Sequence record: PZ445530.1 | DNA from: a phage | DNA: 64,000 nucleotides | Strand: one strand, 5' to 3' | Shown: piece by piece, positions 33,388 through 45,486 of the stretch | Layout of the letters: each line of letters opens with the position of its first letter | How positions within the stretch are numbered: position 1 is the first letter of the stretch | Program-made: the position numbers and the translations under genes | Notes under the pieces: generated by a model | Databases searched by the model: none | What the model saw: only the letters and a program-made list of their open reading frames with translations | Told to the model about the DNA's origin: nothing

Positions 33388-35455
33388 ATTTATGGCATCT
33401 GCATACAACCGTTTCGGTGAGCCAAACCCGAAAGCAACTAAGTATAAAAGTGGGGGAAGTGTGAAACGAGACTATCGTGATGAAAAAGAAGTTGAAACTG
33501 TAGAGACTGTTTTAGAAAATACTAAAATTGTCCCTGTCCCACAACAAAATATCGGTCTGATGGCTGCACAATATTTTGGTGTGCGATCAGCATTGTCACA
33601 AGAAGACGGTGTGACAGTCACTGCAACATATTTCCCATATTACGACCGCTACGGAAATCTGTCCGGTTTCAAAAAGCGTGACTGGACTATTCCTAAAGAA
33701 CAAAGGGGCCACTTCTCCGTTGTTGGCATCGTAAAGGCCAACTCCCAGATGTTTGGTCAAAAGCTGTGTGCATCTTCCAACAACCGTAAGCAGATTAACG
33801 TTTGTGAGGGGGAAGGTGATGTTATTGCAGCATGGCAGGCTGCATATCAGATACAAGTAAAAGGGATTCTCACCAACGCTAAAGCCCCGGCAAAGGTGAA
33901 GCAGTGGGCTAAAGAAGTCCAGGACGGGATCGATGCAGTTATCAACGGTGGTGATCTGGCAGGAAAACCATGCCTGCCTTTTGTTGGAATTAACTGTGGA
34001 TGTGCAAACGCAGTAGATACTTTTGCAAACAATGAGAAGTTTATCCGTAGCTATGGAACAGTTGTGCTGGCAATGGATAACGATGCAGCTAACGAGGTAG
34101 AGAAGCAAAAACACGTCATTAAAGGTGTTGAGGCCACGCACAATATCGCAGCATTTTTGATGGCTGATAACGTTTACCACGTAGAATACCCTGGTGAAGT
34201 AAACGACCCTGACGGTGTAAAAGATATCCGAGACATGCTGAAGGCTAAAAAGCTGGAAGATATTGTCAACATGTTCCGGCATCCTGTTAAATATGTGCCT
34301 GATGCGGTGTCGGATTTAGAAGACTTCTCTATCGAGTCTTTGCGGAAAAAGACTTCCAACGGGGTAGATATCAGCGCAGAGTTCCCAAAACTGCAAAAAA
34401 TGCTAAAAGGCTTGCACAAAGGGACACTCGTAATGCTTACAGGTCCATCAGGTGGCGGTAAAACAACCGTAGCTAAAAAACTGGAACACTGTATTGCAAG
34501 ATACCTAATGGACCCGACATGCCCGAAGGCTGATGACTATGAAGAGGATGATCGTCTATGTATGATCCATCTTGAGGAGGACCCAGAGGAAGCAATTAAC
34601 TCCTTGTATGCAAACCAGTTAGGGTTTGATGTTAAAGAGTTTGTTGAAGATCCTAGCCAGTTTTTAACTGATCAAGAACACGCAGAGATTCACCAATCAT
34701 GGGCAAAAGCTGGAAAAATCAAAGTGTTCAAACATTTCGGGTCTATTCCGGTGGATGAGTTGATTACCAAGCTTAAGCAAATGGTTTGCCTGTACCATTG
34801 CCGTTATATTGTGCTGGATCACCTGTCCATGGTAATTTCAGGGCTTAATGTTAAGGATGAGCGAAAAGAACTGGACATGGCTATGACTCAGCTGGCTGCG
34901 TTTTGTAAGCAGTTTAACGTGTTTATCTTGGTGATCGCTCACCTCAAACGTACAGAGATTGTGCCTCCTAAGGACAAGGATGGTAACCCGTTACCTTTCT
35001 GGTATCCTGTGCGAAAAGAGAATTTGCGAGGATCGGCGGGGCTTGAACAGTTGAGTTGGGTAGTCATAGGTGTCGAGGCCGAAGAAATGGTGGATCGTTC
35101 TCGTGGACGTGTCCGTCTGGTAGGTCTTAAAAACCGTCCAGCAAAAACTCTAGGTATTGCTGACACTTTGGTTATGGACCCGCACACAGGTAAGTTCCAT
35201 GATGCCAGTAATTGGTACTGGGACAAAGAAATGCAAATGTTTACAGACGGAGAAGGTGGGGAGGTTGTTTGGAGACCTCAGGCTATGTTTGAGGATCAGG
35301 AGCATGCAGTTGTAGAAACACCTATGGGCAAGGTTGTGGCTGATAAGGTTGTAACTCCTACTGTTAAGCCTGTTGACACGCAGGAAGACCTCCAGTACGA
35401 TGATCCGTCCTCTGACCATGTTCCTGGTTTTGAGGATGATGAAACACCTTTTTAA
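33377..35455 (+). CDS. DNA primase-helicase (TOPRIM primase + DnaB-like helicase, T7 gp4-type)
   Basis: TOPRIM motifs VCEGEGD and VLAMDNDAANE; helicase Walker A GPSGGGKTT and Walker B IVLDHLS. Confidence 0.75.
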   Translation: MGSKFMASAYNRFGEPNPKATKYKSGGSVKRDYRDEKEVETVETVLENTKIVPVPQQNIGLMAAQYFGVRSALSQEDGVTVTATYFPYYDRYGNLSGFKKRDWTIPKEQRGHFSVVGIVKANSQMFGQKLCASSNNRKQINVCEGEGDVIAAWQAAYQIQVKGILTNAKAPAKVKQWAKEVQDGIDAVINGGDLAGKPCLPFVGINCGCANAVDTFANNEKFIRSYGTVVLAMDNDAANEVEKQKHVIKGVEATHNIAAFLMADNVYHVEYPGEVNDPDGVKDIRDMLKAKKLEDIVNMFRHPVKYVPDAVSDLEDFSIESLRKKTSNGVDISAEFPKLQKMLKGLHKGTLVMLTGPSGGGKTTVAKKLEHCIARYLMDPTCPKADDYEEDDRLCMIHLEEDPEEAINSLYANQLGFDVKEFVEDPSQFLTDQEHAEIHQSWAKAGKIKVFKHFGSIPVDELITKLKQMVCLYHCRYIVLDHLSMVISGLNVKDERKELDMAMTQLAAFCKQFNVFILVIAHLKRTEIVPPKDKDGNPLPFWYPVRKENLRGSAGLEQLSWVVIGVEAEEMVDRSRGRVRLVGLKNRPAKTLGIADTLVMDPHTGKFHDASNWYWDKEMQMFTDGEGGEVVWRPQAMFEDQEHAVVETPMGKVVADKVVTPTVKPVDTQEDLQYDDPSSDHVPGFEDDETPF

Positions 35456-35513: not shown

Positions 35514-38500
35514 ATGAGCATGTGGTCGTTCGATTTTGAGTCATCCGGTTTGCTGGAAGACCCAGATCTTTATTATCACTGCGGCCTGTTTAAAGAGCTG
35601 AATAAGAACCGTTTTATGCTGTTCCTTCCTCTGAATGACCGCACACACTACTCCGAGGAGGATATAGAGAAGGCCAAGAACTTTATTCTGGCAAAGAAAA
35701 CTCTTTATAAGGATTTTGAAGTTCGCATAGCAGATTTTTCGGAGTTGGAAGGTTGGCTTACAGGAAATTCCGACTGGTCACCAACAGCTTTGAACTGCCA
35801 TAACTGCTACAGTTATGACTTTATGCTGATGGAGAGATTATCCGGTATTCATTTTGATATGTTCCGTGATCCTAAATGTATGGGGACTATCAACGACCAC
35901 CAGGTTAACCTGTTTGATACGTTGGCGATGAGCCGAATCTTGTGGCCTGATCGCCCTTTACCAAAAGGTTGTCCGGACTCCGTATTCAACCCGGTTACTA
36001 AGAAAATGCAGCCTGTTGGTCCTCACGGCCTTATGGCATGGGGCTACGCCCTTGGTAACCAGAAAGTTCAAATTGATGATTGGCGCGATCTTCCGTTGTG
36101 GAAGTATGTGGATCGTGTATTCGAGGACGTTATCATCCAGGAGCTACTCTGGAAAGAGCTGGTAGCGGAATCAAAAGGTGTATTCTACGGCAAATCTGAC
36201 ATGCAGAACTTTATGTACGATCCTGCCAAAGAGAAGCCGAAAGGGTTCAAGAAGATCACCTGGAAGAACGCATTGCGCCGGGGTATGCTGCAACACTTCC
36301 TGATGGAGCTGCAGGCCCGTCAGGGTGTGTATTTTGACATAGATGGAGCTATTGCTTTACGTGACCGTTGCGATGCGTGGATGAAAGAAATCGCTGATCG
36401 TGTTGAACCACAACTGCCTTTAAAAGAGCTGTCAATGTCTCAGCGGCCCAAGTTCCCTGAAAAGCCGTTTAACCAAGATGGGACAATCTCTAATAATGGT
36501 TGGAAATGGTTAAAAGATAAGCTTGGCTATCCTGTGGACATGAGTGCTTTAGAGTTCAAAGCCCCACCTAAGCGAGCATTTACCTCTACAGGAGATGTCA
36601 GTAAGATGGGGATAAAATGGTGTGAAGAGATGGGCTGCAAAGACCACGATAAGATGGCTGATTTCTTGAGAGGCTATATTAAGGGCACCTCCACACCACA
36701 ACCTTTACCTAAAGAGCTGATGGATCAGGCAATAAGCGATCTGCAGCAGAAGCGAATGCCTGACTGCAAGATACCTATGAAAATCAGCAATCAGGACGAT
36801 ATTAAGCGATACCTGATCAGTGCTGGTTGGCTTCCGACAATGTGGAGAACTAAGGATGTAACTAAAGACAGCAAGAAGAAAGCTTTACCTGATGCAGATG
36901 TTGATGCACGAGTATATGCATATATGGACGAGCTTTTGGAGTCAGAGTATTGTGACCTAATTATCAACTTCTGGAACAAAACTGATGCTAAGTTCCAGAC
37001 AACCGTGCACAAGTTCCGAAGCTTTCCTAACTCCGAAAGGATTAAAAAGGAAGTATTCGGGAAAATACGTAGAAAAGCTAGGGCACTTATTACTTCTCCG
37101 CAACTGAAAGATACGTTTGGACACCTGTGTCCGAATCTTGAAAAATTGAACGGAGAGATGGCTAAAGATATCGTCTTATGGTTATCATTGCGAAACCGCA
37201 GATCGGTACTTGATCCAATCAAGGAGGATAAGGTTGACACTGGTCTTCTTAATCACCCACGTTTGAAGATTGACCATAAGCTTCCTGCTAAAAGCTCTGG
37301 ATTAACAAACACTTCCAGACAGAAACACAGTATTTGTGCAAACATGCCTAAACCCTCTCCTAAAGTGGTTATGGGTAAAGAGATGCGTAGCTTGTGGGGT
37401 GTTCCTCCAGGATACTTTGAGATCGGTATCGACGGGTCCAACTTAGAGCAGCTTATCGGGGCTTGGGGTGCCTTTGAGTTCGACAACGGCCTGTATTACG
37501 ATGTTGTAAGTAACGGAGACGCACACCAAAACAATGCTGAGGCATATACAAAAGTAGCAGGCAGAGAGGTGTCCCGTAACGACGGTAAACCTATCACGTA
37601 TGGGGTTATGTACGGGGCACAAAAAGATAAAGTTGCAGATATGCTGGACATCTCTCCAGAGTTGGGACAAAGGGTAATCGATGCGCTTTGGGATGCCAAC
37701 CCTGGTCTTAAGGGCCGTAAAGAGGATCTGGAGAAATTCTGGGAAGCAACGGGTAAGAAGTTTATCTACTCTTTTGATGGTCATGCCATCTGGACCCGAT
37801 CTAAACACTCTTTACTTAATGCATACCAACAGAATGGTGGTGCATCGCTGTGTGACTTGGTTGGGATACTTATGCACCACCAAATGGTGAAGCGTGGGTG
37901 GTACGATGAAGGTGTTCGTCGTATTATCTATTACCATAAATAACATTGTGGCTTCGTGCAGTGATGCACGTCGAAAACCTCTTTAATTGACGGGAAGGCT
38001 AAGTTGACTTTTACACCTAAACATGGTAAAAGCTCAATATGCTAATCCGCAGCGAAGACTAAAGGGGTGTAGTTAAAATGGCTAGATCAGTTGAGTATCA
38101 CGGATATACCGTGTTTGATGATGGAACAATACCTTTATCGAAACGTGATCATACAACAATGTTTTGTTTTGATAATGGTCGAGGTTACCTTTGCGTAACC
38201 ATGTTCATCGAGGGGAAGCAGTGCACAAAAGGTGTCCACCACTTGGTTGCTGAATGCTTTGTATCAAACCCTGATCCTGAAAGGCTCACATGGGTGAACC
38301 ATAAGGACGGAAACAAATACAACAATGCATACTGGAACCTTGAATGGACCACCCCTGGTGGAAATATCAAACACGCTTATGATAATGACCTCAGAGTAAG
38401 GCCAGTCGGTGAGTATAATGCCAACGCTGTACTGACCGAGGATGAGGTAACGGAGATTTGCGAACTGTTACAAAGTGGTTTACGACAATGCGAGATTAGG

Positions 38501-39133
38501 GATCTTGGGTATCCTTATGAGACGGTCAGAGCCATAAAGCAAAGAAGACAGTGGAAACATATCTCTAAAAACTACACCTGGTAGTAACGTTCAGAGACTA
38601 TCGAAAGCATAGCGCCAACATAAATTGGTGCGAAGAAGCGAGTAGAGTAGACCAGCAAGTGCGGTCGAAATGGGAGGTGCCTTGGTAACAAGGTAGTGAG
38701 ATAGTCCGATCCATACAGGAAACTGTATGGCTGTGCACGTAATGGTGCGGGGTAGCTTAACGACCTACCTGAACTATTGGATGAGTACCAACTTCAAGTC
38801 CCTGACACACCGAAGTATAAGACTGTGTACACCTTCGACACAATTGAAGAATTGGAAGCATTTAAGGCAGAGCAGGAGGCCAAACTTCATGTGTTCGACG
38901 GTCATAAGTACAAAAAGGCACGCAAGGATGAAAACGGAAACGAAGTGGTTGACAGAGACGGAAACACGGTGTACGATCCTATCTTGAACGATGACGGAAA
39001 GCTTGAACTTATCTGGAGTCCTGTGGGCGAAATGGTGGTACATTGCTTCTGGCAAGCTTCTAAAATGATGGGAGTCCCGTTCCAGATCACAGGTGAATAC
39101 TTGTGTGGTCGTAATTGGGGTGATTGTCACTAA
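35514..39133 (+). CDS. family A DNA polymerase with 3'-5' exonuclease, interrupted by a group I intron (exon 1 35514-37937, exon 2 38780-39133)
   Basis: Exo I FDFES; motif A GIDGSNLEQL; motif B KPITYGVMYGAQ; splicing joins ...RIIYYH to DEYQLQV giving motif C HDE; C-terminus NWGDCH resembles T7 polymerase end. Confidence 0.8.
37938..38779 (+). mobile_element. group I self-splicing intron carrying an HNH endonuclease ORF
   Basis: Exon ends in U; internal guide GUGG pairs with exon CCAU; P2 hairpin CGTGCA-GTGA-TGCACG; P-like AATTGACGGGAAGG (37985-37998); Q AATCCGCAGC (38044-38053); R GTTCAGAGACTA (38589-38600); S-like GAGATAGTCC (38698-38707); terminal G at 38779. Confidence 0.75.
38078..38584 (+). 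CDS. HNH homing endonuclease (intron-encoded)
   Basis: HHLVAECF...NHKDGNKYNNAYWNLEW HNH/AP2-type motif; lies between intron Q and R elements. Confidence 0.8.
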   Translation: MARSVEYHGYTVFDDGTIPLSKRDHTTMFCFDNGRGYLCVTMFIEGKQCTKGVHHLVAECFVSNPDPERLTWVNHKDGNKYNNAYWNLEWTTPGGNIKHAYDNDLRVRPVGEYNANAVLTEDEVTEICELLQSGLRQCEIRDLGYPYETVRAIKQRRQWKHISKNYTW

Positions 39134-39182: not shown

Positions 39183-39467
39183 ATGGTAGTAGAACCAACA
39201 AAAACATTTACATCTATGACTATCCCTGTTATTATGCAGGTGGAGTGTGTTCAGGTATCTCAAGTGTGGCCTGGTACCAAAATCCCAACAGGGCCTGATT
39301 TCTTTCAGGTTGGGAAAGTGTACAATGTCTGGAAGGCACCAGATTGTTACCCTTTCATCAAAGATGACCGTGGAATGTTGTGGTATCTTGGAAATGATTT
39401 GACACTGCACCTTGGGAATGTTATTATTGCAGTATTCAGACTTAACAAGAAGGAGACCGATCAATGA
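39183..39467 (+). CDS. small hypothetical protein (member of small paralog family)
   Basis: ATG 6 nt after GAGGAG, just downstream of polymerase stop. Confidence 0.4.
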   Translation: MVVEPTKTFTSMTIPVIMQVECVQVSQVWPGTKIPTGPDFFQVGKVYNVWKAPDCYPFIKDDRGMLWYLGNDLTLHLGNVIIAVFRLNKKETDQ

Positions 39468-39691
39468 CAACTTTGGTTAAAGCTACTTTTGTAGAAGAAA
39501 AGATGACAGACCTGTCATTCTTTAAAGAAGGAAAGACCTACGAGGTTTATTACGATAAAAATCGTGCAAACAAGATGATTAAAGACGAGGAAGGGATTGC
39601 CTGGTTTATCTCCCATCTGGCAAACGGTGAGTATCATATCTACGGAACCACCCTGCTTGCCAAGTTTGTAGCTGTAGAAGAGGACCTATGA
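39464..39691 (+). CDS. small hypothetical protein (75 aa)
   Basis: RBS ggagacc; ATGA overlap. Confidence 0.45.
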   Translation: MTTLVKATFVEEKMTDLSFFKEGKTYEVYYDKNRANKMIKDEEGIAWFISHLANGEYHIYGTTLLAKFVAVEEDL

Positions 39692-39882
39692 AAGTAAAGT
39701 ATCTTGCTGAAGGTATGAGTAGGTATTTTACCCTTGGCGAAGAATATTGGCCCTTTACAAGCAACGGCGATGTCTACGTGAAAGATAATTTCGGAACGCC
39801 GTGGTTTCTGCACTCTAATGGGCTGGGATACTCCATTTACTGCGGTGCAGTGAACAACACAACTCTTGCAGAGTTCGTTTAG
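39688..39882 (+). CDS. small hypothetical protein (64 aa)
   Basis: ATGA overlap; similar hydrophobic/aromatic pattern to neighbours. Confidence 0.4.
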   Translation: MKVKYLAEGMSRYFTLGEEYWPFTSNGDVYVKDNFGTPWFLHSNGLGYSIYCGAVNNTTLAEFV

Positions 39883-39892
39883 AGGAGGTAGG

Positions 39893-40264
39893 ATGTTAGT
39901 AAAAGGTACCCACACAGTCAAACAACGTATTGAAGTTGAGATTGATGATTGTGAGCTGAAGCATATTCTACGGTCATGTTCTAACGTTTTGCTCCTTAGC
40001 ATTCTCCAAGAGCGAGCGGAGAACGAGTTCTTAAATGCATTGGCAGGCCGTCCGGGTGACTTTTGTGTGCGTAAGCGTGGTGACAACAAGTCATGGCTGT
40101 GGGAAATCGATGCCGACTGGGATTACCACAAAAATGAGGGTATAGATGAGCCTATTCGTGAACTGACGGACAAAGAGATTCAGATGTACAATGAAGTTTG
40201 TCATTGGGCAACACGCCAACAAATTTACCTCGACCCTGTGTGGCTGATTGAAAATAGCCATTGA
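39893..40264 (+). CDS. hypothetical protein (123 aa)
   Basis: ATG after GAGGAGG. Confidence 0.45.
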   Translation: MLVKGTHTVKQRIEVEIDDCELKHILRSCSNVLLLSILQERAENEFLNALAGRPGDFCVRKRGDNKSWLWEIDADWDYHKNEGIDEPIRELTDKEIQMYNEVCHWATRQQIYLDPVWLIENSH

Positions 40265-40340
40265 CAAGAAGTAAGATTAGATATAAGATGCTTCACACAA
40301 ACAGATCGGTGATTTTTAAATAACTAAGGAGACTGCCAAG

Positions 40341-40595
40341 ATGAAAATTACTTTGAAGCCAGATTGCGTTGCAAATGACCGAGCTTTTAAAGATTGCCCA
40401 GTCGGTGCAATTTATGAAGCAGAGTTTTGTGAGAACCCTCTGGTAAAAGCCCTTCTGGAAGAAGGGGCCCCTTTATCACAAGAAGAGATCGATGAGCTGG
40501 AAAACTCAGCACAGTGCCTTACCTTTAAAGATGATGAAGGAGACTCTGTCTGGTGCACTGTTAATGAAGTCGTTTTTGTAAAACCTGAACATTAA
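40341..40595 (+). CDS. small hypothetical protein (84 aa)
   Basis: RBS taaggag; paralogous to 40659-40931 (KPD...AF(K/R)DC...DD(E/Q)GD.V.CT). Confidence 0.45.
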   Translation: MKITLKPDCVANDRAFKDCPVGAIYEAEFCENPLVKALLEEGAPLSQEEIDELENSAQCLTFKDDEGDSVWCTVNEVVFVKPEH

Positions 40596-40598
40596 TAC

Positions 40599-40627
40599 TT
40601 GACAACAGCGATAGGACCTAGTACAAT
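40599..40627 (+). promoter_or_regulatory. sigma70-like promoter with -10 inside an inverted repeat
   Basis: TTGACA - 17 bp - TACAAT; AGGACC...GGTCCT inverted repeat brackets the -10. Confidence 0.4.
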
Positions 40628-40658
40628 GGTCCTATCAAAACGAAAGGGGACCACAACA

Positions 40659-40931
40659 ATGACCAAACAATACCAACGAATTAAAGCCAAGGTTAAGCCA
40701 GACTATCTGGAGAAGGACTCTGCTTTTCGGGACTGCACAGCTGACAAAGTTTATACAGGGGCCGTCCTGTTGAACGATGAACTTGAAGTAGATATTCTGG
40801 GTAAAGAGGCAACTATTAAGGACGACCAAGGCGATTATGTTTGCTGCACCACACGTGAGCTAGAAATCTTAGAATACTTCGGTGAAATCTTCACCTCTCT
40901 TGATGATTACTTAGATGATGAGGAAGCGTGA
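40659..40931 (+). CDS. small hypothetical protein (90 aa)
   Basis: ATG after aaagggga; paralog of 40341-40595. Confidence 0.45.
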   Translation: MTKQYQRIKAKVKPDYLEKDSAFRDCTADKVYTGAVLLNDELEVDILGKEATIKDDQGDYVCCTTRELEILEYFGEIFTSLDDYLDDEEA

Positions 40932-41320
40932 TGAAAAATATTTGGGATATCGATATCTTTGAAGCCTCTAAGCTTGATGGTGCTGATGGAGTGATTATGG
41001 TGTCTGATGGCAAGGCAACACTAACTTCCGGAGATATCATCTATGCCTTGGACGAGCTGGCGCTTCTGAAATCTACCGGTAACACTTTGGAGGAGCGTCT
41101 TCAAGGATTCGCTTTCAAAGAAGGTACAAATACAGCCATGATGTGCACCACACGGACAGTTCAGGTTGGTAACGGTGTCTATATGATTATTGCTGTGTGT
41201 CCTAAATTCAGCAACGTCAACAAAGATGATGCTGACGCGGTCAACGATGTGGTTGTTCTCTTCGTGGGTGACGCTATGGCAGATCTGATGAATGCAGGAG
41301 AAGCAGCAAATGAAGACTGA
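40931..41320 (+). CDS. hypothetical protein (about 129 aa)
   Basis: ATG after gaggaag. Confidence 0.45.
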   Translation: MKNIWDIDIFEASKLDGADGVIMVSDGKATLTSGDIIYALDELALLKSTGNTLEERLQGFAFKEGTNTAMMCTTRTVQVGNGVYMIIAVCPKFSNVNKDDADAVNDVVVLFVGDAMADLMNAGEAANED

Positions 41321-41612
41321 AAACATCACCCCAGCAGGGTTCTTAAAAGTATACCGTGAACTGCTATATACTACAGAGGACAGTGTTCTAGAGTATCCAG
41401 AATATCTTTTGCTGTATAAGTATCTGCAGGAGGCTGGTGAAAATCTGCCAGTTAGTGCAGAAGGTGGTCCAAACTGGATATACAGTGCATGGAGAAAGGT
41501 TGACATTCTCCCAGACCCAGGTAAAGATATGGTAGTTTGGCAGCTTATCAACAACATCGGGATTCCAATCTTTGATGAAGCTGTTAAAATCTATTTTGAA
41601 CTTGACGATTAA
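41310..41612 (+). CDS. hypothetical protein (100 aa)
   Basis: ATG after caggagaag; overlaps upstream gene end. Confidence 0.4.
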   Translation: MKTENITPAGFLKVYRELLYTTEDSVLEYPEYLLLYKYLQEAGENLPVSAEGGPNWIYSAWRKVDILPDPGKDMVVWQLINNIGIPIFDEAVKIYFELDD

Positions 41613-41629
41613 TATCAGGAGACCTTAAG

Positions 41630-41875
41630 ATGACTGAAGCAGTTGCTCGCGCAGGACAGAAAGTACGTTGTGTTGAAGTAGGTTTTGGTGGCAAAGGGTG
41701 TCAAAACTTGACTCAAGGTAAGGAATACGCTGTTATCTCTGGGGGCGGAGACGAAAGTATTGTGTTCGAGGGCCACATCCTGGATGCTGAAAACTTTGAA
41801 ATCTTTGACGACGATGGGGACCCGATCACCTGCCTGCTGGACGGGAATTGGGGAACTTTCGAAGTGATTGGCTAA
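41630..41875 (+). CDS. small hypothetical protein (81 aa)
   Basis: RBS caggagacc. Confidence 0.45.
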   Translation: MTEAVARAGQKVRCVEVGFGGKGCQNLTQGKEYAVISGGGDESIVFEGHILDAENFEIFDDDGDPITCLLDGNWGTFEVIG

Positions 41876-41958: not shown

Positions 41959-42327
41959 ATGGAACAAATGAACGATCAAGCGTCGGTTGCGATGAACGAG
42001 CAAGAACAACCTCAAGAATTTTTCTTAGGGTTAAGTAAAGATCAAGTGTCTCTTCTGCTAGTGCTTTCTTCTTTCATGGGAAGACTTCAGGAGCTCACAC
42101 AACAGCCAGAGGCTGAACAATTATTTCAGGCTCTGCGTGAAGAAGAAAAATATCGTCGTTTGGACTATGCCTTGGGTTGGGTAGCTCAACAACGAGATAT
42201 GCTGATGGCCCTCTCTGGGACCACAAGTTTTGCAATGGGCCTGTTGGCTCAAGTTCAGGACAAATTAATTCAAGCAGGGTTTGCACACACGGCAAACACT
42301 AACGAAGAACAAGGAGACAAAGAATGA
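41959..42327 (+). CDS. hypothetical protein (122 aa)
   Basis: RBS cggagatt. Confidence 0.45.
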   Translation: MEQMNDQASVAMNEQEQPQEFFLGLSKDQVSLLLVLSSFMGRLQELTQQPEAEQLFQALREEEKYRRLDYALGWVAQQRDMLMALSGTTSFAMGLLAQVQDKLIQAGFAHTANTNEEQGDKE

Positions 42328-43550
42328 GCGTTATTCAACAATTCGCTAACCCGATGAATCCGCGTGAAACTGTTTTACTGGCTCACGGCATGATTAAACG
42401 CGTCAGCATCAAGCCTATCAAAGGTGCTGATCCTACAACAGGTATTAAAACCACTGTGTGGCAAGGTAAGAAAATTGAGTCCAGCCACACCATCTCTTTA
42501 CTGATTTCTGAACTGGATTCCTCTGATAACCTACTTCAAGGTGGTGAAGAAGTTTGGATCAGTATGGGCGATAAGCTGCTTAAACCGGGTCATCAAGACT
42601 CTGTCTCTGTTAAAATTGATGACAAGTGGGAAACCGTAACGCCAGGATGGATCGTAAATATCCCTTTGAAGGCAAACGAGCATAACGGTAAGACCTACTA
42701 CAAAGGCTCACTGGCTAAGATGGTTAAGCTGGGTGCAGGAGAGGCTCCAGCAGCGACTCAGCAGCAAAAACAGCAACAAGGTGCACAATCACAAGGCCAG
42801 AAGCAGAAACCTCAGCAGAATGCCAATCAGGACGTTTTACGCATCTATGGTGATGTGACTCAGATTGTTGGCAACGTGGTTACTGTTAATGACCACAAGA
42901 TTGGCGAAGGTGCTATGGTTGTAACTGATGAGCAGCTTAAAGACCTGGTGGTAGGTGGTCGTGTTGCAGCCATTGTTGACAAAGACACCGGAAACATTAT
43001 CAGTGGTTTCAAAGCCTATCCTCCTAAGGCAGAGAACGGTACTCAAGGCTCTGGTGGCAAGCGTAAATCCTCTTACGACCCTATCGGTGTGGAAACGGGG
43101 CATAGCATCAATGCGTTGCAAATCATCCTGGATCGCGGGTTTAAGGTAGACGACCCACTAGGAGTGGCTAAAACACTACACGTAGTCACTATTGAGCTTA
43201 AGAAAGAGTATGCTCAAGCCACCAACCGAACTGAAGATGAAGTAGGTGCCAGTGTCGGTAATGCGGTGTTGAACGCTTGTCGCCGTATTGACAAGAAAAC
43301 GAAAGTTGATGATTTTGCAGCGGCAATTACTGCAGAAGCAAAAGATGTCTTGACTAATCTGGCTGAGCCGTTGTACGATTGGATCAAGAACGGTGCTGGG
43401 TCAACTGACCATCAAGAACCTCAGGCTGCCAAACAGGAAGCAGCTCCACAGCAAAACACTGTAGACGCTCCTCCTGTAAATGATGGGGAAGATGACCCGA
43501 TGGATCAGAATCCAGCACAGTACGCCTTTGATGATGACATCCCATTCTAA
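42324..43550 (+). CDS. protein with SSB-type C-terminal tail (ssDNA-binding protein or SSB-tail mimic)
   Basis: RBS caaggagac; Gln-rich low-complexity linker; C-terminus ...YAFDDDIPF identical to the bacterial SSB tip DDDIPF. Confidence 0.55.
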   Translation: MSVIQQFANPMNPRETVLLAHGMIKRVSIKPIKGADPTTGIKTTVWQGKKIESSHTISLLISELDSSDNLLQGGEEVWISMGDKLLKPGHQDSVSVKIDDKWETVTPGWIVNIPLKANEHNGKTYYKGSLAKMVKLGAGEAPAATQQQKQQQGAQSQGQKQKPQQNANQDVLRIYGDVTQIVGNVVTVNDHKIGEGAMVVTDEQLKDLVVGGRVAAIVDKDTGNIISGFKAYPPKAENGTQGSGGKRKSSYDPIGVETGHSINALQIILDRGFKVDDPLGVAKTLHVVTIELKKEYAQATNRTEDEVGASVGNAVLNACRRIDKKTKVDDFAAAITAEAKDVLTNLAEPLYDWIKNGAGSTDHQEPQAAKQEAAPQQNTVDAPPVNDGEDDPMDQNPAQYAFDDDIPF

Positions 43551-44814: not shown

Positions 44815-45262
44815 TACTGTAGAGGGAGATTTAATCTCCCTTTTTAAGAGCGGTGCTGGTCACCTGATCCACGGTTGTAACTGCTTCCACACAATGGGCA
44901 AGGGGATAGCAAAACAGATTTCCCGTGAGTTCCCTCAAGCATTGGCAGCTGACAAAGAGACTAGATATGGTTGCCTAAGTAAACTGGGTGCGTTCTCCCG
45001 ATGGGAGCACTTATCTCCGAGAGGTATTGTCTACGGAATCAATCTGTATACTCAGTTCTACCCAGGACCTAATGCTGAATATTTCTCAATTCTGAAAGGC
45101 TTTGAGCTAGTCAATGAGGTATTCAGTAGATCGACTTTACCATTCTACATCCCTAAGATCGGGTGCGGCATAGGCGGTTTGAAGTGGGAGCACGTAGAGG
45201 ACGTTATTAACCTTGCCACTTTTGATATGGATATTATCGTGGTAGACTACAAAAAGTGTTGA
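44804..45262 (+). CDS. macrodomain protein (TARG1/OARD1/DarG-like ADP-ribosyl hydrolase)
   Basis: GTG start after GAGGAG overlapping upstream stop; GDLISLF, HGCNCFHTMGKGIA and PKIGCGIGGLKWEHV parallel TARG1 blocks GDLF, HCISEDCRMGAGIA, PRIGCGLDRLQWENV (recalled from memory). Confidence 0.7.
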   Translation: MIIDTVEGDLISLFKSGAGHLIHGCNCFHTMGKGIAKQISREFPQALAADKETRYGCLSKLGAFSRWEHLSPRGIVYGINLYTQFYPGPNAEYFSILKGFELVNEVFSRSTLPFYIPKIGCGIGGLKWEHVEDVINLATFDMDIIVVDYKKC

Positions 45263-45315
45263 CAGCTGGTTTTTGGGATGGTGTAGTCACCACAACGATT
45301 GAGATAGGGAGCACT

Positions 45316-45486
45316 ATGGAGACTAAAATCTTAATTCTAGCTGTGATAGATACAACCGAAGGGGCTGTGTTCGAATCTGCAGGAGGGTATTTCTACCTAC
45401 CCTACGGAAAAAGAACTGCTGAACCAGGTAAAGATTCAATCATCAAAGTGTTCCCGTGTGCTTTCTGGCTGGAGATTTTGGTATAA
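45316..45486 (+). CDS. small hypothetical protein (56 aa)
   Basis: ATG after gatagggag; below track size cutoff. Confidence 0.3.
   Translation: METKILILAVIDTTEGAVFESAGGYFYLPYGKRTAEPGKDSIIKVFPCAFWLEILV

Follow-up and report, generated by a model that had tools for sequence, protein, structure and literature searches.

The window analysed here, a stretch of 64,000 nucleotides (nt) from a phage (sequence record PZ445530.1), carries ten small genes on the + strand between the DNA polymerase and a protein of 408 amino acids (aa) resembling single-stranded DNA-binding (SSB) proteins, as delimited by the gene calls in phage nimi and by a list of open reading frames (ORFs). Six of these genes, named B1, B2, B3, A1, A2 and C in their order along the DNA, are assigned by sequence comparison to two families. 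We propose that they probably constitute a conserved cassette of small (64-94 aa), mostly acidic SH3-type barrels devoid of enzymatic motifs, made up of two tandem-duplication groups and acting as stand-alone binding modules for host or, less likely, phage proteins. The DNA is that of a Vequintavirus: the 3-kb region best matches Escherichia phage FFH2 (98.8%), and nearly all of the 118 phage records that match it are rV5-like myophages (Vequintavirus, ~137 kb), in which every gene of the region is annotated 'hypothetical protein'. An original prediction, made from the letters of the sequence, had described a cluster of tiny, tandem paralogous genes downstream of the polymerase, typical of diversifying host-interaction factors. 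The ORFs are present where that prediction located them, and their small size, tandem paralogy and position behind the polymerase are all supported.

Judged by sequence comparison, A1 and A2 are clear paralogs. The two are 32% identical in a blastp alignment of 77 aa (41 bits), are each other's best non-orthologous match in phmmer searches of 1112 ORFs from the window and related loci (E 1e-7 to 5e-7), and cross-match reciprocally in PHROG (E ~1e-5), while hhalign joins the alignments of their orthologs with 97% probability (E 6e-11). The pattern that had been quoted for the two proteins, KPD...AF(K/R)DC...DD(E/Q)GD.V.CT, proved to be exact: K-P-D, A-F-[KR]-D-C and D-D-[EQ]-G-D-x-V-x-C-T are all invariant in the pairwise alignment, and the 14 columns that are invariant across 15 A1 and A2 sequences, two cysteines included, cover most of it. 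The main difference between the paralogs is a ~25-residue insert, ENPLVKALLEEGAPLSQEEIDELENS, located in A1 between strands 2 and 3; A2 ends in an acidic tail, DDYLDDEEA. With family A as the query, tblastn hits two sites in the genome of essentially every Vequintavirus record, and word-indexed protein searches with A1 and with the A alignment returned Vequintavirus orthologs only. The deposited genomes of phages JLBYU08 and Alma, both propagating isolates, carry A1 in a frameshifted or split form, which suggests that A1 is dispensable in the laboratory, unless these disruptions are sequencing errors. In a metagenomic Vequintavirus relative, the 131-aa protein P0084 is an in-frame fusion of A2 with C-terminal sequence of the 129-aa protein encoded downstream, which implies that a deletion has removed the tail of A2 along with the beginning of the following gene.

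Pairwise similarities within family B are weak when taken singly (33% over 45 aa for B1 and B2, 29% over 69 aa for B2 and B3; 23-27 bits, blastp). Both pairs are nevertheless reciprocal best hits (phmmer), and profiles built with one member left out recovered B1 at E 1.2e-9, B2 at E 9e-10 and B3 at E 2e-6 among 2854 ORFs. The three proteins are colinear end to end on F-x-x-G-x-x-Y, h-K-D-x-x-G-x-x-W and A-x-F, the barrel module of B1 corresponding to its C-terminal ~65 aa (FFQVGKVYNV...IKDDRGMLWY...AVF). When sequences of an uncultured lineage (L009-L012, described below) were added, hhalign joined B2 to two divergent B groups with 96% and 91%, and B1 to B2 with 77%. The original prediction listed B2 and B3 and omitted B1, which is related to both by profiles. 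It had also proposed alignment and hidden Markov model (HMM) building as the check for similarity beyond composition, and such similarity was found in the A pair (97% in hhalign) and in B (leave-one-out E 2e-6 to 1e-9).

Outside the window, a word-indexed protein search with the B alignment returned Vequintavirus orthologs only, and the B profile, run exhaustively with HMMER against 1.84 billion representative proteins, yielded few relatives. These include phage-type proteins (P0068, P0069, P0071, P0073, P0075 and P0077) that contain a ~55-residue B unit in 3-5 tandem copies. P0068 is encoded on a phage-like contig and adjoins a Prim-Pol gene, P0073 scores above the Pfam threshold of DUF6501 and nearly at that of DUF7244, and weak Pfam matches link the repeat proteins to PRC, CSD-like and PUA barrels, among others. 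Two further candidates from the same search, the fn3 protein P0072 and the ankyrin protein P0074, were discarded as false positives. C was found at E 2e-5 by a profile of B plus the repeat units and, among the 2854 ORFs, at E 8e-6 by a profile of the external repeat units alone, in which C was never included; the repeat proteins having themselves been found with the B profile, this test is independent for C but partly circular for B. An alignment of C homologs, including the first-in-operon genes of Klebsiella and Vibrio siphophages, matched the broad profile with 97% in hhalign (E 4e-11), and B alone with 49%. On the strength of the profile matches and of the 97% hhalign value, C, whose gene lies 1.7 kb downstream of the B genes, is placed by sequence as a distant member of the B superfamily. 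The Pfam thresholds of DUF7244 and DUF6501 were reached by none of the six window proteins: C against DUF7244 gave the best score (14.5 bits, E 0.039; cut-off 27), the A and B proteins gave no match, and none of the six C homologs aligned with C matched DUF7244, a family assigned to the SH3 clan (2026 paper, PMC13164509).

AlphaFold2 models were obtained for B2 and A2 from shallow alignments of 15-20 sequences. B2, modelled with 20 aligned orthologs and paralogs at a predicted local distance difference test score (pLDDT) of 85, is predicted to fold into a small beta-barrel of six strands, the first two connected by a prominent loop of 12 residues, a barrel of the type represented by Gp54 of Escherichia phage Bas11 (PDB 9AXB; Zhang et al., Nature 2024, PMC11578894). 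Gp54 displays a very rare barrel topology; it is non-essential and of unknown function, is bound directly by the host defence protein CapRelSJ46 and, as its authors suggest, may inhibit another defence system (PMC11578894). We located Gp54 in the Bas11 genome as bas11_0054, 11 of the 11 residues named in the paper agreeing with this sequence, and found its family by tblastn to be confined to Drexlerviridae-type siphophages of ~50 kb. An hhalign comparison of a six-sequence Gp54 alignment with all B was marginal (1.5-2%, E 0.03), albeit colinear over 64 columns, and gave its best value with the Bx1 subgroup (25%, E 7.5e-4). Comparison of Gp54 with B by hmmsearch gave E above 1, a single Gp54 sequence was likewise marginal only, and the B profile found nothing meaningful among PDB sequences, 9AXB being unlisted. 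The models thus point to a link between Gp54 and B at the level of the fold, and the predicted fold of the B1-B3 trio is the rare one of Bas11 Gp54. Since activation of CapRelSJ46 is known for the Bas11 Gp54 variant only, is abolished by three substitutions and fails even with close homologs (PMC11578894), there is no hint that B proteins trigger this sensor.

Other small proteins of Bas11 (L020, MZ501085.1) also came to light, namely gp48 (37578-37943), gp61 (42369-42554), gp71 (45147-45338) and gp41 (33759-33929), the last a 56-aa protein whose gene immediately precedes that of the holin. These four are matched by the B/C superfamily profile at E 1e-4 to 0.03, suggesting that small SH3-type barrels are apparently common among the uncharacterised small genes of coliphages. 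Weak tblastn matches of B2 in phages Ivi and JLBYU41 were rejected, as they correspond to larger proteins related to Bas11 gp48 and not to Gp54.

A2 was modelled at a pLDDT of 83, with five strands, the last of them preceded by a helical turn, a short helix in the strand 1-2 loop and an acidic tail that is disordered. It is therefore predicted to be a generic five-stranded SH3-like barrel. Its best non-self match in BFVD is an A1 ortholog (E 2e-4), the others being uncharacterised small phage proteins. Similarity of the model also extends to eL14 and eL27, ribosomal proteins of the KOW type, and to the insertion barrels of the RNA helicases Ski2 and Mtr4.

The two families remain separate in all sequence comparisons. 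Values for A against B or C in hhalign were mostly at or below ~3%, with a best of 5.0% for A2 against C (E ~0.01 or worse); the external B-unit profile did not recover A1 and A2 among the 2854 ORFs (E 67 and 1.4); and single-group and merged profiles in hhalign, as well as a broad 'units' HMM, left the relation of A to B/C at chance level. The original prediction had treated all these genes as one array with related motifs. B2, B3 and C are indeed interrelated by profiles, but none is significantly similar to the A pair, and we conclude from these alignments that there are two sequence families, A and a B superfamily that includes C. As no significant sequence signal connects A with B/C, the claim of a single superfamily is withheld. 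That A1 and A2 are highly diverged barrels of the B/C type, all six genes descending from a single old array, is nonetheless conceivable, and we hold it as a tentative alternative. A, B and C have a common order of elements, in which a long loop follows the first strand (hKAKV or hKChh), strand 2 carries G-x-x-Y and an h-x-D-D-x-G-D hairpin comes next, and their genes are adjacent and all on one strand. Moreover, the short helical turn in the A2 model falls exactly where the B2 model has its extra strand, making a common origin of A and B possible; an extra strand in place of a turn is the difference that the Gp54 authors describe between Gp54 and SH3 domains (PMC11578894). A bolder version, which we regard as decidedly unlikely, would have A, B and C form one ancient superfamily of stand-alone SH3/Gp54-type barrels, which large coliphages would have multiplied so as to bind, and thereby neutralise, several different sensors or defence proteins of the host, CapRel-type immune proteins recognising them in turn. 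If this were true, the Gp54 fold would be no Drexlerviridae oddity and would represent a widespread, sequence-cryptic class of phage counter-defence or decoy modules.

The six genes are real and under constraint. Pooled Nei-Gojobori ratios of nonsynonymous to synonymous substitution rates (dN/dS) across nine Vequintavirus genomes were 0.016-0.18 for every cluster gene (B1, 0.016; B3, 0.11; A1, 0.13; C, 0.12), next to 0.04 for both the polymerase C-terminal exon and the SSB-like gene, indicating that the copies are under purifying selection; these ratios are gene-wide averages, which single positively selected sites could escape. Gene content is constant among the nine aligned genomes, and at least 80% of the 3-kb block is covered in 115 of the 118 matching records, mostly at 90-99% identity. 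These data do not support the diversification that had been ascribed to the cluster. The L009-L012 sequences (IMG/VR sample 3300045988, 118-141 kb) represent an uncultured lineage that is syntenic with Vequintavirus and has ~30-60% identity in these proteins. Two B copies, A1, A2 and C are found there in the same order next to a neighbouring gene just 42% identical, so the duplications predate the split from this lineage and are old. These sequences are also useful to deepen alignments.

The positions of the genes and of the candidate control elements are given in Table 1.

Table 1. Genes and candidate regulatory elements of the interval downstream of the DNA polymerase, with positions in the window.
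Feature	Position	Strand	Description
B1	39183-39467	+	94 aa, pI 6.5; gene call in phage nimi; phrog_12922; GAGGAG Shine-Dalgarno upstream
B2	39464-39691	+	75 aa, pI 5.05; start overlaps B1 stop (ATGA); predicted six-stranded beta-barrel
B3	39688-39882	+	64 aa, pI 5.0; start overlaps B2 stop (ATGA); phrog_12802
Unrelated gene	39893-40264	+	123 aa; phrog_6273; between the B block and the A block
Sigma70-type promoter-like site upstream of A1	40261-40289	+	TTGACA-17-TAAGAT; corresponds to sigma70 promoter P220 in the rV5 GenBank record
A1	40341-40595	+	84 aa, pI 4.2; phrog_12544
Sigma70-type promoter-like site upstream of A2	40599-40627	+	TTGACA-17-TACAAT, 11/12
Inverted repeat between A1 and A2	40610-40636	+	GATAGGACC / GGTCCTATC; the 9-nt loop is the -10 region of the A2 site
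A2	40659-40931	+	90 aa, pI 4.2; phrog_11936; predicted five-stranded SH3-like barrel
Unrelated acidic protein gene	40931-41320	+	129 aa; phrog_8284
Unrelated DUF7238 gene	41310-41612	+	100 aa; PF23885 30.2 bits (cut-off 27); phrog_1451
C	41630-41875	+	81 aa, pI 4.1; phrog_4927; LTQGKEYAV...FEIFDDDGDPITC
Unrelated gene	41959-42327	+	122 aa

A GGAG-type ribosome-binding site precedes every start, and the ATGA start/stop overlaps of B2 and B3 suggest translational coupling of B1, B2 and B3. In the promoter-like site upstream of A1, both hexamers are invariant in the nine genomes and the spacer is variable; in that upstream of A2, the -35 hexamer is invariant, the -10 hexamer reads TACAAT or TATAAT, and the spacer is again variable. 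The arms of the inverted repeat between A1 and A2 covary in three of the nine genomes (L008, L022 and L023), where GGACC/GGTCC is replaced by GGGCC/GGCCC, and this element could be an operator palindrome or an RNA hairpin controlling A2. Several records start A2 at the ATG at 40626. Because the -10 hexamer overlaps this ATG and the divergent lineage starts A2 at the equivalent of 40659, the latter position is the better start. The isoelectric points (pI) of the six proteins range from 4.1 to 6.5, five of them being at 4.1-5.1, with net charges down to -12.5. This acidity points to protein binding or DNA mimicry and argues against nucleic-acid binding. A literature search on early-gene expression in Vequintavirus and on a link between CapRel and Vequintavirinae returned nothing bearing on these genes.

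What could these barrels do? Scans of the six proteins against Pfam, NCBIfam and PHROG provided no functional name, and those against Pfam and NCBIfam no match to a catalytic family. A small, acidic, non-enzymatic barrel that is also found as a repeated unit suggests a binding module rather than an enzyme. As to expression timing, binding and targets, we infer that each barrel would act as a stand-alone binding module, expressed from promoters of the host RNA polymerase or by read-through of the replication operon; that its binding would inhibit or redirect a target protein, more likely one of the host than one of the phage; and that the paralogs would have settled on different partners. A role in host-protein interaction is plausible, given the small, acidic, non-enzymatic barrels, the sigma70-type promoter-like sites of A1 and A2, and the predicted fold in common with Gp54.

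Several points weigh against this proposal. A position within the replication module is just as compatible with a replisome accessory function, and the strong conservation of the cassette and its near-universal presence in the genus are unusual for counter-defence genes, which usually occur in variable regions. The models cover B2 and A2, the folds of B1, B3, C and A1 being extended to them from homology; the Gp54-B link is one of predicted structure, with marginal sequence support; and both A1 frameshifts could be sequencing errors. The barrels might instead be replisome accessory factors, binding the phage DNA polymerase, primase-helicase or SSB-like protein, or the host clamp or SSB, and tuning phage DNA replication. 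Such a function would fit genes located between the DNA polymerase (35514-39133) and the SSB-like protein, which are under strong purifying selection and behave as core genes of the genus, and would fit B1-B3, translationally coupled directly after the polymerase and devoid of a strong promoter of their own. However, Seunavirus, Mydovirus and Certrevirus have the same polymerase and SSB-like protein with other small genes in the interval, where searches turned up no A gene and no more than one gene of the B/C type. The A1 and A2 genes moreover have sigma70-type promoter-like sites of their own, and A1 is disrupted in two isolates, making a replisome function unlikely in our view.

Regulation of phage transcripts or DNA binding by small barrels of the Sm, KOW or cold-shock type would be in line with the likeness of the A2 model to eL14, eL27 and the Ski2 and Mtr4 insertion barrels, and with the PRC, CSD-like and PUA barrels among the weak matches of the repeat proteins, but the acidic charge argues against nucleic-acid binding, and we consider this very unlikely. 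Finally, the weak pairwise scores within B (23-27 bits) could be taken to mean that the similarity is compositional chance and that the ORFs are no genes. The reciprocal best hits, the leave-one-out E values down to 1e-9, the dN/dS values well below 1, the ribosome-binding sites, the confidence of both models, and a conservation that spans more than 100 genomes and extends to a divergent lineage all contradict this idea, leaving it hardly any credibility.

Three further genes are located inside the span of the cassette and belong to neither family. The 123-aa protein has homologs in SSE121, 4MG and Ro1 and is conserved across other Vequintavirinae genera; blastp and phmmer comparisons revealed no similarity to A, B or C. 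The 129-aa protein has no paralog within the window by phmmer, and the DUF7238 protein has homologs in Seunavirus and Mydovirus.

On the upstream side, the family A DNA polymerase gene is split at its catalytic motif (..IIYYH / DEYQ..) into two pieces, 35514-37943 and 38777-39133. The Rfam model for group I introns matches the insert (37928-38729) with 39 bits (E 3e-8), short of its gathering score of 50; the insert holds a 168-aa ORF (38078-38584), for which phage FV3 carries the annotation HNH endonuclease. The gene is uninterrupted in phage nimi, and an insert of ~320 nt without ORF is found in JLBYU08 and HMD-6. On the downstream side, the 408-aa SSB-like protein (42324-43550) has a long Gln-rich linker mid-protein and ends in ...FDDDIPF, which we take to be the C-terminal tip motif of E. 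coli SSB. It is labelled single-stranded DNA-binding protein in one record and hypothetical in most, and has relatives throughout Vequintavirinae. Among the records matching the region, 16 are named 'Campylobacter phage' (host Campylobacter jejuni) and are 96-98% identical to the E. coli phage region, so that their naming or host assignment looks doubtful.

These genes were known before as hypothetical proteins. Each of the six has a PHROG of its own, matched over the full length (PHROG 12922, 12623, 12802, 12544, 11936 and 4927; E 1e-27 to 3e-67), and these are separate families of 'unknown function', where neither paralogy nor a fold is recorded. What is new is the grouping into two paralog families of SH3-type barrels, together with the predicted Gp54-type fold of B. 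Six 'hypothetical proteins' in more than 100 genomes could accordingly be labelled SH3-type small barrel proteins, in two paralog groups. If the prediction for B is true, the Gp54 fold occurs three times in tandem in an unrelated group of therapeutic and model coliphages in wide use (rV5, FFH2, BASEL Bas48-59) and is broader than sequence searches reveal. The diverged copies offer a natural panel for asking what such barrels bind, and whether sensors besides CapRelSJ46 detect them.

Among known systems, the closest include the canonical SH3 and KOW-type small barrels, such as the Ski2 insertion domain, the SH3-like repeats of InlB and the SH3 domain of RecD. DUF7244 and DUF6501, SH3-clan domains that stand alone in proteins of phages and bacteria, are alike in module length and in motif logic (V-x-C-h ... 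T-x-G-K-x-Y-x-V ... h-x-D-D-x-G), but the DUF7244 protein described in Drexlerviridae adjoins lysis genes, whereas the window proteins sit in the replication module. By contrast with Bas11, where Gp54 is present as a single copy, the cassette described here comprises three tandem B copies and a distant fourth, C.

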